DNA from: Candidatus Versatilivorator sp.
GTDB lineage: Bacteria; Acidobacteriota; Terriglobia; Versatilivoradales; Versatilivoraceae
Assembly: GCA_965207735.1 (NCBI GenBank)
Contig: OZ242296.1
Location: forward strand, 3,456,001-3,520,000
DNA length: 64,000 nt
Direction of reading: 5' to 3'
Below, piece after piece: positions 2,339 to 8,831 of this stretch. The notes under the pieces were generated by a model. That model worked only from the letters and a program-made list of their open reading frames with translations, did not search any database and was not told the origin of the DNA. The position numbers were made by a program, and so were the translations under genes. Every line of letters begins with the position of its first letter. Position 1 is the first letter of the stretch.

Positions 2339-2947
2339 ATGATTAAGGTGATCTGCCTGGATATGGGCAAAGTCATCATCGACTACGACCCGACCATTCC
2401 GCTGGCCTCGCTCGGCGCACGCTCCCAACTGTCATTGCCGGAGATCAAGCAAGTCCTGACGGATAGGGAACCCCTGTTGCTATTCGACCGTGGCCACTAT
2501 TCCCGATCCGACTTCTACCGAACCATGTGCGCCCGCCTGCGGCTGGATGTCTCCACCGAGGAGTTCGAACAGCTCTGGACATCCCTGTTCCTGCCCGAGC
2601 CGCTTCTGGCGGAGTCCTTTCTGCTCAGCCTGAAGCGCCGCTACCGGCTCCTGATGCTCTCCAACGTGAATGAAGTCCACTTCGAGTTCATTTGGAAAAA
2701 CTATCCCCTGGTGCGCCATATCGAGGATCGGCTGCTGTCCTATGAACTGGGCTGCCTGAAACCGGAGCCCTCCATCTATCGGATCGCCATCGATCGAGCC
2801 GGAGTCCTCCCCGAAGAAATCTTCTTTGCCGACGACCGGCCGGAAAACGTCGAGGCCGCCCGGCAGGCCGGAATTGTAGCCACCTGCTTCCAGTCCGAGC
2901 GGCAGCTCAAGCTCGCCCTGGGCCGGGCCGGGGTGGTTGTCGAATGA
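2339..2947 (+). CDS. HAD-superfamily phosphatase (YihX-like)
   Basis: MIKVICLDMGKV motif I, LSN motif II, KPEPSIY, FFADDRPENV. Confidence 0.85.
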   Translation: MIKVICLDMGKVIIDYDPTIPLASLGARSQLSLPEIKQVLTDREPLLLFDRGHYSRSDFYRTMCARLRLDVSTEEFEQLWTSLFLPEPLLAESFLLSLKRRYRLLMLSNVNEVHFEFIWKNYPLVRHIEDRLLSYELGCLKPEPSIYRIAIDRAGVLPEEIFFADDRPENVEAARQAGIVATCFQSERQLKLALGRAGVVVE

Positions 2948-2989
2948 AGGCGCCCGGTTGAGCACGCCGGGCCGCCACCACAGGTTGAC

Positions 2990-3739
2990 TTGCGATTCCT
3001 GATCCTGGCCGACATCCACGCCAACCTGGAGGCGCTCGAGGCGGTCCTGGAGCGGGCCAGGGGTCAATTCGACCAGGTGATTTGCTGCGGCGACCTGGTC
3101 GGCTACGGCCCCGATCCCAACCAGGTGACCGAGGCGGTGCGGCAACTGGGTCCGGCGGTGATGGTTCGTGGCAATCACGACAAGGCCGCGGTGGGACTCA
3201 CCGATCTCTCTTTGTTCAACCCCTTGGCCAGAAGCGCGGCGCTCTGGACCCAGACTCAATTGTCGGAAGAGAATCGGCGCTACTTGCTGGCGATGCCCCG
3301 CGGACCGGCGGAGGGGAGCGGATTCACGGTGGCTCACGGGTCATTGCTGGACGAGGATCAGTACCTGCTGAACCTGGAGGACGCGCTGCAGAGCCTGAGC
3401 CTGGCGGCCCACGGGCTGACCTTCTTCGGACACACCCATGTTCAGGGTGGCTTCGCCTGGTTCAAGGATCAGAGGGCCGGGCCGTTGAATCCCGATCTGA
3501 GGAAAGGGGCTGCAGAAAGCCGGCTGCTGCTCGATTCGGAGAACCGGTACTTGATCAACCCCGGGGCGGTGGGGCAGCCCAGGGACGATGACCCGCGGGC
3601 GGCCTTTGCGGTCTTTGATCAGGAGAAGGCGCTGCTTTCCTACTTCCGGGTGGAATACCCGCTCGGGCGGGTCCAGCAAAAGATGAGAAAGGTCGGGCTG
3701 CCAAGCTACCTGGCCGACCGGCTGGCCCAGGGATGGTAG
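2990..3739 (+). CDS. Metallophosphoesterase (calcineurin-like)
   Basis: DIHAN, GDLVGYG, RGNHD, HGS, FGHTH, INPGAVGQPRD motifs. Confidence 0.9.
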   Translation: MRFLILADIHANLEALEAVLERARGQFDQVICCGDLVGYGPDPNQVTEAVRQLGPAVMVRGNHDKAAVGLTDLSLFNPLARSAALWTQTQLSEENRRYLLAMPRGPAEGSGFTVAHGSLLDEDQYLLNLEDALQSLSLAAHGLTFFGHTHVQGGFAWFKDQRAGPLNPDLRKGAAESRLLLDSENRYLINPGAVGQPRDDDPRAAFAVFDQEKALLSYFRVEYPLGRVQQKMRKVGLPSYLADRLAQGW

Positions 3740-5393: not shown

Positions 5394-5649
5394 CATAGAC
5401 GACTTTAAGGCCGTTCCCCATGGGTCCGCTGGTCATGTCGCCAAGCCCAACCGGCGCAAGCTCATTATTCCTCCCACCACCAACACTGCCAATTCGCCGA
5501 ACGACGGCGACGCCTTCGGCAACTGGAAGGGTAAATGTGCACGATTGAGAGCATTTCCGGGACCACGCTTCGTGACCAACCGGGCAAAAGGAAACAAATC
5601 ATCCTGGACTGAAGGTGCCGATCATTCAGTGTGCTAATGGCGTGAAATA

Positions 5650-5664
5650 TTCGCTGTTAGCGAA
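5650..5664. promoter_or_regulatory. Palindromic operator candidate upstream of the retron promoter
   Basis: TTCGCT-gtt-AGCGAA, perfect 6-bp arms, 7 bp upstream of the -35 hexamer. Confidence 0.5.
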
Positions 5665-5671
5665 ATAAGTC

Positions 5672-5700
5672 TTGACTTCCAGCTCCGAAATGTTTATTTT
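5672..5700 (+). promoter_or_regulatory. Sigma70-type promoter of the retron locus
   Basis: TTGACT (5672-5677), 17-bp spacer, TATTTT (5695-5700), directly upstream of the structured RNA. Confidence 0.6.
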
Positions 5701-5729
5701 CAAGATGTTTGGAAAATACGGAAGTAAAA

Positions 5730-5948
5730 GTCATCACACCCTGGGTTGGCTTCGGTCAACCCGAGGAGGGGAAACCCTCTACCGCTTACTGCAGCAATCA
5801 CCCTCTCTCCTCAGTGGTGGTCGCTGAGCGAAGCGAGACCCAACCAATGACCCGTTGGGTCTCTGACACATTTGGATTTAGCTGCCACGTTCCGTCTTTC
5901 TGTTGGTGATGACCTCATTCCGCAATTCGGCGGGTGAGCAACAGAAAG
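5730..5948 (+). ncRNA. Retron msr-msd-like structured RNA
   Basis: a1/a2-like IR gtcatcac 5730-5737 / gtgatgac 5906-5913; hairpins 5743-5762 (C-UUCG-G loop), 5766-5779 (GAAA loop), 5810-5828, 5835-5863 (10-bp perfect stem), 5914-5938; stem 5896-5905/5939-5948; lies upstream of a retron RT. Confidence 0.8.
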
Positions 5949-5959
5949 GAGGTGAGAAA

Positions 5960-6127
5960 ATGCTCTCACTGGGAACCAAACCGTGGCGGCGGCGACCGAA
6001 GAGCGGGGGTAAGCAGTGTAGATGGCTACGTAATCCGCGCCTGCTTCGGACAGCTATCCTTATAGGCATCTGGGCCTATCGTCTATGGAGGATTTGCCGG
6101 GCGCTTAATGGTATTTTCGGAGGCTAG
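5960..6127 (+). CDS. 55-aa cationic, hydrophobic small protein; candidate retron effector (type VI small protein)
   Basis: Strong SD AAGGAGGTGA before ATG 5960; MLSLGTKPWRRRPKSGGKQCRWLRNPRLLRTAILIGIWAYRLWRICRALNGIFGG; lies between the ncRNA and the HTH gene. Confidence 0.7.
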   Translation: MLSLGTKPWRRRPKSGGKQCRWLRNPRLLRTAILIGIWAYRLWRICRALNGIFGG

Positions 6128-6168
6128 GTCGCTTTCCACTGTGTCAAATTACAACCGGATTGGTAAGG

Positions 6169-6504
6169 ATGGCTGTTGACGTACTATCAGAAGCACTTCG
6201 GCTGATTCGAGTGTTTCACGATGTAAAACAAAAACAATTGGCGGAACAATTGGGTATCTCGAAGTCGTATCTTTCAGAGATCGAACGAGGTAAGAAAATA
6301 CCCTCCATTGAGGTCATTCAGAAATACGCCGCTGAGTTTCAAATGCCAGTTTCGTCCATTCTTTTTTTCGCCGAGCAGTTGGTCGACCCAAACCGGAAAC
6401 CTCCAGATGCCGACCGTGTAAGAGGAATCATTGCCGGAAGGGTCATCAGTTTCCTGCAGTTCATCGAAGCAAAAGCGAAAGAACATGCCGAAGAAGCGCA
6501 CTAA
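6169..6504 (+). CDS. XRE/Cro-C1 helix-turn-helix protein, retron-associated
   Basis: LRLIRVFHDVKQKQLAEQLGISKSYLSEIERGKKIPS; overlaps the RT start by 20 nt. Confidence 0.9.
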   Translation: MAVDVLSEALRLIRVFHDVKQKQLAEQLGISKSYLSEIERGKKIPSIEVIQKYAAEFQMPVSSILFFAEQLVDPNRKPPDADRVRGIIAGRVISFLQFIEAKAKEHAEEAH

Positions 6505-7375
6505 ATGCTACGCGGAGCAGGATAGCCCCTTCTATAAGCTCCGCTCGAAGGCGAAACTTGCAAATCTTCTCTTTCTCAACGTCGATAAATTAGAGTTTCT
6601 TGCGGAATCCGAGGACCTATACTTCGATTTCCCCAAGAAGAAAATGAGTGGCGGTTTCCGCCCGATCAGTGCGCCGCGTGCCGATCTCAAGATTGTACAG
6701 AAGAGAATTGCAGACTTGCTTCAACGCATCACTCCGCCGGATTATCTGTTTGCGCCGGTTTGCGGGCGTTCTTATGTGGACAATGCCAAGCGGCACTTGG
6801 GAGCCAGCTCAGTTCGACACCTAGATATCGAGGATTTCTTCCCGAGTTGCACCGCAAATAAAGTCATATGGTTTTTTCGAAAGCGAATGGAATGCTCCCC
6901 GGACGTTGCAGTACTCCTTCGTGGCGTTGTCACAAGGCGTGGTTCGTTGCCACAGGGCAGCCCATGCAGTCCGATACTAGCGTATCTCTGCTATGTGGAT
7001 ATGTGGGAAGAAATTGAACGCCTAGTAGGCGAGAGTAGTTGCCAACTGAGTGTCTACGCCGACGACCTGACAATTTCAGGAGAAATGGTCCCGGAGAGTC
7101 TTATTTGGGAAATAAAACAAATACTGTTCCGACACGGTTTCCGACACAAACGCAGCAAGGAACGGAGCAAGATATACAAACCTACAAAGATAACCGGTGT
7201 AATCCTCAATGGAAACCAGCTTCTCGTGCCGAACCGGCAGCACCAGAGACTCTATCAAGTTCGTCAGAAGTTGAAGGTTTCCCGCTCGCCTGAGCACCGC
7301 AGGCAGCTTAAGGCACAACTGGTCGGGCGAGAATCACAGTTCCGCCAGATTGTCGGAACTCCGCAAAGTCAGTAG
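6485..7375 (+). CDS. Retron-type reverse transcriptase (296 aa)
   Basis: Region X NAKRH (NAxxH), LDIEDFFPS, LPQGSPCSP, catalytic YADD, region Y ITG (VTG-like); no maturase, endonuclease or RNase H extension. Confidence 0.93.
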   Translation: MPKKRTKCYAEQDSPFYKLRSKAKLANLLFLNVDKLEFLAESEDLYFDFPKKKMSGGFRPISAPRADLKIVQKRIADLLQRITPPDYLFAPVCGRSYVDNAKRHLGASSVRHLDIEDFFPSCTANKVIWFFRKRMECSPDVAVLLRGVVTRRGSLPQGSPCSPILAYLCYVDMWEEIERLVGESSCQLSVYADDLTISGEMVPESLIWEIKQILFRHGFRHKRSKERSKIYKPTKITGVILNGNQLLVPNRQHQRLYQVRQKLKVSRSPEHRRQLKAQLVGRESQFRQIVGTPQSQ

Positions 7376-7385
7376 ACCCACCACG

Positions 7386-7417
7386 GGACTCTTGCTCAAC
7401 TGGCAAGAGAAGAGTCC
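7386..7417 (+). terminator. Stem-loop just after the RT stop codon
   Basis: ggactctt 7386-7393 / aagagtcc 7410-7417, or alternatively ctcttgc/gcaagag; no U-tract. Confidence 0.3.
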
Positions 7418-7649
7418 ATAAATAGCAAGTACTCTCCAACCGTGGACTAATCGACAAGAAACGAGGATATTGGTGTCGCGACATGTTTGCGGCATTGGCC
7501 GCTCGAGGGACAATGCGTCCCACCGCCGGTCCGCGTTCCGTCCGGTTGAGCTCCCAGAAATCAGCTTCGCCAGGATATGCTATCCTTTCCACCAAAAACT
7601 TCCTGGCTAATGAAGTGCTGGCATCATCTCCGATGAGAGACTGTGCAAG

Positions 7650-8831
7650 ATGAATCCTGAAACGAGTCCGTTCAGCCCCGGACAACCCGTGCCGATTGAG
7701 TTTTTTATTGGGCGCATCCGTGAGGTCGAGCGTCTGCGGGGCATGGTAAGGGCTAGTACACAAGGCAAATTCCGAATCGGATTTGTCAGCGGAGAACGGG
7801 GCATCGGCAAGAGTTCCCTGGCGTCGTTCGTGCGCTACCTTTCAGAGCACGAGAGCCAAGTCGCAGGATGGCATGTCTTTCTCGGCGGCGTTGAGGATTT
7901 GAATGAGATGCTTCGAAGGACCTTCGATCGCCTGCTGAAGGAAAGCATGGACAAACCCTGGCATGAGCAAATCAGGAACTTTTTTGGAAACCACGTGCGT
8001 CAAGTGGGTCTGTTCGGGGTCACTTTGGAGTTGAATCTCCAGGAAAGCGACTGGTCAACGCTCGCCCATGATTTCGTGCCGACCGTCAGGCGGCTTCTGA
8101 ACGAAATCAAGGACCAGAAGCGTGCGCTATTTCTCATCCTGGATGACATCAACGGTCTCGCGGGTTCCGAAGTTTTCGCCAACTGGCTGAAAAGCACCGT
8201 GGACGAGATCTCCACGTCCCAACAGAAAATGCCTCTCTGCATTCTAGTTGTCGGCCTTGAGGAGAGGCGCCAGGAGCTGGTGTCGAAGCAACCGTCTCTT
8301 GCGCGCGTCTTCGAGTTGATCGACATCGCCCCCTGGTCTGACGATGAAGCCATGGACTTCTACCGGAAGTCATTCGACGCCGTGGGCGCTAAGGTTGCCG
8401 ACAGCGACATGCGCCAACTCGTCCGATTCACCGGCGGACTTCCTGTTCTGGCCCACGAGATCGGCGACGCCGTCTGGCGCACGGCCGAGGGTCCGGAAAT
8501 CGAGTCAAAAGAAGTATGGGAAGGAATCTTGACCGCAGCCGAGGTGATCGGCCGGAAACTGCTGCAACCCCAAGTGTTCAGGGCAATTCGCAGTGAGCGT
8601 TACCGATCCATTCTTCGAAAAATGTCGGGCGCGCCCCGGATGAGCTTTGGAAGATCAGAACTCATGGGACGTCTGTCGGACAACGAAAGAAAGGTCATGG
8701 ACAACTTCCTGCGACGCATGAAACGGCTCGGAGCGCTGGAAACCGATCCCGAGGTCAAAGGTGGATACCAATTCCCCAACCTCCTCCACATGCTTTATTT
8801 CTGGATTGAATCCCAGCGGATTTCCCGATGA
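7650..8831 (+). CDS. Stand-alone AAA+/STAND-like P-loop ATPase with probable C-terminal winged helix
   Basis: SPFSPGQPV...FIGR N-terminus, Walker A GERGIGKSS, Walker B LFLILDD, TGGLP motif. Confidence 0.85.
   Translation: MNPETSPFSPGQPVPIEFFIGRIREVERLRGMVRASTQGKFRIGFVSGERGIGKSSLASFVRYLSEHESQVAGWHVFLGGVEDLNEMLRRTFDRLLKESMDKPWHEQIRNFFGNHVRQVGLFGVTLELNLQESDWSTLAHDFVPTVRRLLNEIKDQKRALFLILDDINGLAGSEVFANWLKSTVDEISTSQQKMPLCILVVGLEERRQELVSKQPSLARVFELIDIAPWSDDEAMDFYRKSFDAVGAKVADSDMRQLVRFTGGLPVLAHEIGDAVWRTAEGPEIESKEVWEGILTAAEVIGRKLLQPQVFRAIRSERYRSILRKMSGAPRMSFGRSELMGRLSDNERKVMDNFLRRMKRLGALETDPEVKGGYQFPNLLHMLYFWIESQRISR

Follow-up and report, generated by a model that had tools for sequence, protein, structure and literature searches.

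A conserved RNA switch over the effector start site of a type VI retron and its likely opening by reverse-transcribed DNA

Introduction

How is a retron RNA that folds over the ribosome-binding site of its own effector gene opened? Canonical retrons, for example Retron-Eco1, comprise a reverse transcriptase (RT), msr hairpins, an msd hairpin and an inverted-repeat priming helix; a branching G that directly follows the 5′ arm primes reverse transcription, and a toxin is held in check by the msDNA produced. A preliminary description of a locus in Candidatus Versatilivorator sp. proposed the inverse, namely that reverse transcription removes an RNA strand that hides the start site and so switches translation on, and it pointed to a derepression model of this kind for a type VI retron. 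Such a model is indeed in print: for Retron-Vpa2 of Vibrio (type VI ‘Large’ lineage; RT WP_069548583.1), the main text of Zhang et al. (bioRxiv 10.1101/2025.10.22.683967) reports that translation of the small protein (SP) needs an active RT and is blocked by a dead one. The inverted retron logic is thus already known and, by analogy, probably applies here.

According to the same text, Vpa2 makes a 470-nt hybrid RNA in which the SP ribosome-binding site and start codon lie in two stem-loops and the 3′ end wraps back as an a1/a2-like helix, while a helix-turn-helix (HTH) protein represses the RT. Its msDNA, sequenced from a single band, measures 86 nt and carries the loop repeat within a 5′ extension of 23 nt, and full-length but not 5′-truncated msDNA supplied in trans switched SP on (bioRxiv 10.1101/2025.10.22.683967). 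The authors propose that 7-nt direct repeats in the msd loop and the riboregulator loop allow base pairing between msDNA and riboregulator, without settling the details; RNase H is named in that text as a reagent only.

Here we find that the switch in the Candidatus Versatilivorator locus is real and conserved, that it is of the kind described in 2025, and that the cis route first proposed for its opening is disfavoured. In the reading we prefer, which we consider probable, a lock helix and a start-codon hairpin hide the SP start site in the type VI retron RNA, and pairing of the msDNA 5′ loop with a repeat in the lock (R2, 5907–5913) opens it.

Results

A type VI retron with an SP gene behind its RNA

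Coordinates are positions in the window, the whole 64,000-nt stretch of contig OZ242296.1 (Candidatus Versatilivorator sp.) that was analysed. The locus is a type VI retron, with structured RNA, SP, HTH_VI and RT_VI in that order:

5672..5700, + strand: putative sigma-70-like promoter, with a transcript start probably near 5707
5741..5780, + strand: two msr-like hairpins (predicted folds), with an invariant GGG in the second
5960..6127, + strand: SP gene, encoding 55 aa with a basic N-terminus and a C-terminal half that is hydrophobic; product predicted to be a toxic effector
6169..6504, + strand: HTH protein of type VI retrons (PADLOC HTH_VI, E 9.9e-32)
6485..7375, + strand: type VI retron reverse transcriptase, 296 aa (PADLOC RT_VI, E 1.5e-93)

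The first description had called this a retron whose structured RNA hides an SP ribosome-binding site, and the RT_VI and HTH_VI matches, together with the stems described below, bear this out. The RT scores far better with RT_VI (E 1.5e-93) than with the next-best PADLOC family (E 6.5e-45), and the features by which type VI is recognised were found: a clade-3 RT with an intact YADD catalytic motif, an HTH protein of Cro/C1 type, and a small protein encoded between the non-coding RNA and the HTH gene, the latter being an ORF of 51–62 aa in 33 of 37 aligned loci (the script left the start unassigned in the other four). The HTH gene overlaps the start of the RT gene by 20 nt (6485–6504); the HTH start codon common to most homologues is replaced in the window, and the protein likely begins four codons earlier. 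SP matched no profile in Pfam, PADLOC or NCBIfam, and a homologue search returned three close proteins only. It is predicted to be toxic because the Vpa2 SP, likewise of 55 aa, serves as the model.

The retron stretch is lower in GC (48–52%) than its flanks (61–68%). The candidate promoter is the sole promoter-like match in 5500–7700, a region in which 1.8 are nevertheless expected by chance; a TTG-type −35 element follows the upstream palindrome (see below) in the homologues inspected too. An Rfam search gave one chance-level match and none inside the retron, and a distant blastn search of 5700–7375 against E. coli genomes gave no match.

The surroundings of these loci vary. Directly after the RT, in the same lower-GC stretch, lies a gene for an AAA_16/STAND-like ATPase (7650–8831), possibly another defence gene, and a second, distant RT (30% identity) is encoded elsewhere in the same genome (L011; G000:C1:4583044-4583781). 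Three plasmids (L143, L145 and L147) carry a TIR-domain gene 3′ of the type VI RT (about 2411–3430 in those loci), and in L008, L009 and L024 an unrelated insertion-like sequence stands in place of the RNA and SP region upstream of HTH or RT.

Homologous RNAs

RT searches yielded 51 viral loci, 9 genome loci and 80 metagenome loci (the best 80 of 570), and 2 more came from the own genome. Of these 142 RT loci, 45 were matched by a DNA profile built iteratively from the RNA region. Once the self locus, three duplicates and partial matches had been removed, 39 sequences including the window were left; the alignment used here (A2) holds 37 of them, with a mean column identity of 46%, the two without a 5′ end being omitted. 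RT identity to the window ranges from 43 to 83% across the set, and the closest RT loci among the matches listed are labelled Candidatus Versatilivorator and Terriglobia. Column-based paired fractions were 57.8% for the P1 helix, 62.8% for IR1:IR2 and 52–63% for the start-codon hairpin (elements defined below); these counts are lowered by alignment slips, and per-sequence tests were therefore used. Automated assignment of the lock or the Shine-Dalgarno sequence (SD) was wrong in four rows (L014, L019, L023 and L041). For the repeats, we counted core cells, defined as repeat positions 2–6 in each of 37 sequences (185 cells).

A lock helix and a start-codon hairpin hide the SP start site

The RNA ahead of and around the SP start contains the following elements:

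5895..5905, + strand: lock strand, pairing with 5939–5949
5914..5938, + strand: inner hairpin with a GCAAT loop (exact GCAAT in 14 of 37 sequences)
5946..5970, + strand: SD AAGGAGG (5946–5952), split between the lock and the start-codon hairpin

In the preliminary description the lock strand was an anti-SD sequence, ctttctgttg (5896–5905), pairing perfectly with caacagaaag (5939–5948). The two are exact reverse complements; the hairpin at 5914–5938 exists as claimed, and so does the second hairpin (5951–5957:5964–5970) with the AUG (5960–5962) in its loop. A further claim, that the lock can be extended over AAGGAGG, stands in part: U5895:G5949 can be added, whereas C5893:G5951 cannot, since G5951 is needed by the second hairpin and cannot serve both stems. 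In addition, 5890–5895 has a conserved alternative partner in 5718–5723.

The 80-nt segment 5891–5970 folds at −32.3 kcal/mol (z −3.76), a value equalled by 1 of 200 shuffles. A perfect 10-bp inverted repeat occurs in 4.7% of 300 mononucleotide shuffles of 5700–6170, and an 8-bp repeat in 69%, so that an 8-bp arm such as the one described in the next section needs covariation, which is present. For the lock itself, 5896–5905 against 5939–5948, both sides change in 8 of 10 pairs. Among the 33 sequences with an assigned start (four rows misassigned), 31 have a lock helix of 7–12 bp, and 32 of 33 homologues have a hairpin around the start codon, with a median z of −2.6. The SD is usually divided between both stems; it is untouched by the lock in 9 of 33 rows, 6 of which are correctly assigned. 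Both stems thus recur with altered sequence in homologues, as expected of real, conserved structures.

The predicted cost of opening the region from SD to AUG is 14.8 kcal/mol in the window, falling to 8.6 without the lock strand and to 8.7 without the whole non-coding part. This agrees with the claim that 5896–5905 is the main strand hiding the ribosome-binding site. Removal of the lock strand lowers the median cost in 33 homologues from 12.1 to 8.5 kcal/mol, with no drop in three of them (L003, L004 and L007).

Two further elements were noted. The GCAAT loop (5922–5929) is also seen in several distant loci and may be a protein or tertiary contact. A helix between 5881–5888 and 5983–5990, pairing RNA with the SP codons for arginine, is predicted by folding to close the lock arm, and the codon run is conserved.

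A leader predicted to pair with both ends of the lock

Pairing partners for the lock loop and the lock foot lie close to the transcript's 5′ end and are listed here with the two repeats:

5718..5723, + strand: P1 (ACGGAA), leader strand complementary to 5890–5895 at the foot of the lock
5730..5737, + strand: X, leader anti-repeat (GTCATCAC), complementary to R2 and with the sequence of the predicted msDNA loop
5845..5851, + strand: R1 (CAATGAC), in the loop of hairpin 5835–5863; its DNA copy is the predicted key
5907..5913, + strand: R2 (TGATGAC), riboregulator copy in the one-sided loop of the lock, previously taken as the 3′ a1/a2 arm

The 8-nt one-sided loop 5906–5913 is the exact complement of 5730–5737, and the pseudoknot pairing noted at the outset is real. 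X and R2 pair in 87.6% of cells by column and in 182 of 185 core cells. One of the pairs is AU in 14 sequences, CG in 12, GC in 6, UA in 3 and GU in 1, and unpaired in none, so that all four Watson-Crick types occur; moreover, X changes together with R2 on all five branches on which R2 position 4 changes. The P1 helix, of 3–9 bp, has GGA and TCC in 37 of 37 sequences (the script picked a second GGA in five rows).

We looked beyond the alignment in a distant set of 15 loci with enough upstream DNA, 7 from plasmids and 8 from metagenomes. Eight of them showed the four-part pattern in the geometry expected, one (L061) had off-geometry matches and six had none; of 150 shuffles, 9 gave a match. These distant loci carry other P1 pairs, including GGGG:CCCC, AGAGA:TCTCT and CAGAG:CTCTG.

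The leader is therefore predicted to be able to dock at both ends of the lock, bearing the same sequence as the msDNA key. Such a clamp, consisting of a third complementary copy of the repeat plus P1, is named in the main text of neither preprint on type VI retrons (that on Vpa2 and that on Retron-Sen3, discussed below), although the Vpa2 covariance figure may show some of the pairs. X may act as a guard over R2, and could equally be the activating strand.

One-way differences between R1 and R2 support pairing of the R1 copy with R2

R1 and R2 are identical at five of seven positions and wobble-compatible at the other two, and a 7-nt direct repeat is kept in the 37 sequences. A DNA copy of R1 would pair with R2 in all 185 core cells, 170 by Watson-Crick pairs and 15 by wobbles. 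All 15 differences from R1 to R2 are A-to-G (10) or C-to-T (5), leaving T:G or G:U wobbles, where the opposite polarity would leave 15 mismatches. On the HTH+RT tree, every one of these differences counts as its own parsimony step. The one-way polarity has a binomial probability of 3e-5 under a null of equal directions, which is a simple one, and other constraints also act on R1. We read the polarity as evolutionary support, obtained independently of the work on Vpa2, for binding of the R1 copy to R2.

The same comparison bears on a reading in which X is the activator rather than the guard. X would be held on R1 at rest and freed for R2 either by copying of R1 with RNase H action or by msDNA pairing with the msd, whereupon the GGA of the docked leader would pull TCC off the SD. 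X and R1 do pair in 175 of 185 core cells, a T at X position 6 accompanies an A at R1 position 2 (5 of 9 against 3 of 28 sequences; Fisher p 0.012), P1 resembles an anti-anti-SD in being a purine-rich leader strand with a pyrimidine partner, and the trans experiment reported for Vpa2 fits, because only full-length msDNA covers R1. Yet X:R1 has 10 mismatches where X:R2 has 3, and in the window offers 5 bp against 8 bp plus P1. Nor is one-way polarity predicted by release of X, since X:R1 is mismatched at 8 of the 15 differences. We regard this reading as unlikely, if the best of the alternatives, and prefer the one in which the copy of R1 itself binds R2.

Reverse transcription likely starts at the foot of the R1 hairpin

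A second pair of inverted repeats suggests where the RT starts:

5780..5863, + strand: predicted msd template, 84 nt, with stem-loop 5783–5834 and hairpin 5835–5863 (putative ends)
5864..5876, + strand: IR1, pairing with IR2; adjoins the R1 hairpin foot and is the predicted primer-template junction
6135..6146, + strand: IR2, directly following the SP stop; predicted to end the hybrid RNA on its 3′ side and to serve as primer

IR1:IR2 covaries and starts at the foot of the R1 hairpin. Across 37 sequences, cognate duplexes have a mean energy of −9.8 kcal/mol compared with −6.2 for non-cognate ones, and a median z of −2.3 against shuffles; the pairing is weak in some rows, with z above −1.5 in 6 of 37. 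R1 lies 11–22 nt from the start of IR1:IR2 in all 37 sequences, and the predicted msd measures 79–105 nt. The single-sequence fold of 5707–6150 forms neither IR1:IR2, P1 nor the long msd stem. With a start near 5863 the msDNA would measure 84 nt and carry the repeat at nt 13–19, within a 23-nt 5′ extension like that of Vpa2, and we conclude that the RT likely starts there, priming from IR2 on IR1, as the covariation and the analogy with Vpa2 both suggest. Priming at X:R1, which would give about 63–65 nt, like a shortened Vpa2 form, was considered and dropped, as it has more mismatches and that form is tied to RecBCD in the main text of the Vpa2 preprint.

This start differs from the one originally proposed, in which X:R2 is the priming helix, the RT starts near 5905 just inside the arm 5906–5913, and RNase H, acting in cis, takes away the lock strand. 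X:R2 does covary strongly and encloses msr and msd from both ends like a canonical a1/a2 helix, the predicted opening cost falls on loss of 5896–5905 both here (14.8 to 8.6 kcal/mol) and in 33 homologues (median 12.1 to 8.5), and a very short cDNA could escape 33-nt spacer capture. The three positions after X (7–9 from its start) are A in 33, T or C in 30 and A in 31 of 37 sequences, and the first of these, an unpaired A in the 33, could be a branch site. However, a branching G is missing 3′ of X, with G in at most 2 of 37 sequences at each of six positions after the paired core, and another covarying duplex, IR1:IR2, sits at the foot of the msd hairpin. A start at 5905 predicts 126 nt with the repeat at nt 55–61, as against the 86 nt reported for Vpa2 with the repeat in the 5′ 23 nt. 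Removal of the lock strand is moreover without effect in L003, L004 and L007, and the proposal leaves R1, the wobble polarity, IR1:IR2 and activation in trans unexplained. We therefore consider a start at 5905 improbable, and that part of the preliminary description unsupported.

A model for opening the lock

In the preferred reading, with a start near 5863 and the R1 copy as key, the lock and start-codon hairpin would hide the start site at rest, and the leader would clamp both ends of the lock, X on R2 and P1 at the foot. The HTH protein would hold the RT back until phage infection, as in Retron-Vpa2. The RT would then prime from the 3′ end of its own RNA (IR2 on IR1) and copy from about 5863 to 5780, turning R1 into its complement, a key that has the sequence of X and could displace X from R2. 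Opening of the lock, the weakest step, might follow from loss of the clamp and strain at the loop, or from an RNase H cut in the 7–9-bp DNA:RNA hybrid and subsequent trimming of the lock strand. Ribosomes would load on the opened site, and SP would arrest the infected cell.

When R2 alone is occupied, the predicted cost of opening does not fall (it is 14.8 kcal/mol with or without in the window, and its median rises from 12.1 to 12.9 in 33 homologues), so that the route from key to open site is unexplained by nearest-neighbour models, which cannot form pseudoknots. An RNase H cut with loss of the lock strand would close this gap, and to that extent part of the original idea is kept.

Constitutive SP restrained by HTH after translation, with the RNA stems merely dampening translation, is what has been shown for Retron-Sen3, whose ribosome-binding site is likewise predicted in a stem, but this is very unlikely here, where SP has 55 aa like that of Vpa2, as against 79 aa with an N-terminal extension in Sen3, and where a Vpa2-type pair of loop repeats is present and under selection.

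A candidate operator upstream of the promoter

One conserved element lies ahead of the transcript:

5650..5664, no strand: palindrome TTCGCT-N3-AGCGAA, candidate HTH operator, 7 nt upstream of the −35 box

With up to two substitutions the palindrome is present in 36 of 37 upstream regions, and it was seen in most of the distant loci inspected; the exact pattern occurs once in the 5.26-Mb genome. It is a candidate operator for the retron HTH protein. It is named in the main text of neither preprint; the words pseudoknot, operator and palindrome are absent from both main texts, and toehold from that on Vpa2. In the printed texts, then, leader clamp and palindrome both appear to be undescribed.

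A further copy of the half-site AGCGAA stands where the msd stem has its base (5827–5834), and there a GCGAAG-like word is present in 29 of 37 sequences; for this reason, msDNA might bind the HTH protein.

Discussion

The leader clamp, the wobble polarity and the candidate operator add testable detail, read from sequence comparison, to a switch already known. The Vpa2 authors left its RNA-level mechanism open, and the wobble polarity supports their proposal that the msDNA loop pairs with the riboregulator. Mutable elements can now be named (the leader strand that rivals the key for the R2 loop, the other leader helix, and candidates for the primer junction and the HTH operator), which makes the open step directly testable. 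They could also guide the design of DNA-triggered riboregulators.

A broader generalisation is conceivable, and we offer it tentatively. Type VI retrons might use a three-copy code, in which the leader is an RNA mimic of the key and forms a double-pseudoknot clamp, the RT converts a loop of the same sense to the complementary key, which displaces the leader, the RNA primes from its own 3′ end, and the HTH protein is also a transcription factor at the palindrome, with a half-site at the base of the msDNA stem.

Retron-Vpa2 is the closest described relative in organisation. Common to both are the order RNA-SP-HTH-RT, a 55-aa SP, two stem-loops over the start, 7-nt direct repeats in the msd and riboregulator loops, and a 3′ inverted repeat after SP. 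Sizes are also similar: the predicted RNA is about 440–460 nt here against 470 nt, and the predicted msDNA 84 against 86 nt. The host group differs from that of Vpa2, and elements were matched between the two by the description in the paper. The extra leader copy of the repeat, P1 and the palindrome go unnamed in the Vpa2 main text; its figures or supplements may show them.

Retron-Sen3, of the type VI cl2075 lineage, is controlled after translation, and its main text describes a 79-aa SP with an N-terminal extension and constitutive DNA of 112 and 145 nt (Garcia-Rodriguez et al., bioRxiv 10.64898/2026.04.27.721009). It resembles the locus studied here in its SP-HTH-RT order, a ribosome-binding site predicted to be sequestered, and IR1-IR2 pairing across the SP gene; it differs in SP length, in post-translational control, and in that direct repeats are unnamed in its main text. 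A literature search, which covered sources other than subscription journals, found no further mechanistic paper on type VI retrons.

Compared with canonical retrons, the Candidatus Versatilivorator locus has no G after the 5′ arm, and its primer is predicted to lie downstream of the effector gene. Type I toxin mRNAs such as tisB, timP and zorO, as far as the accounts consulted describe them, are alike in that their structure keeps them silent and that processing or a pseudoknot switches them, but unlike the present locus they have no key of reverse-transcribed DNA.
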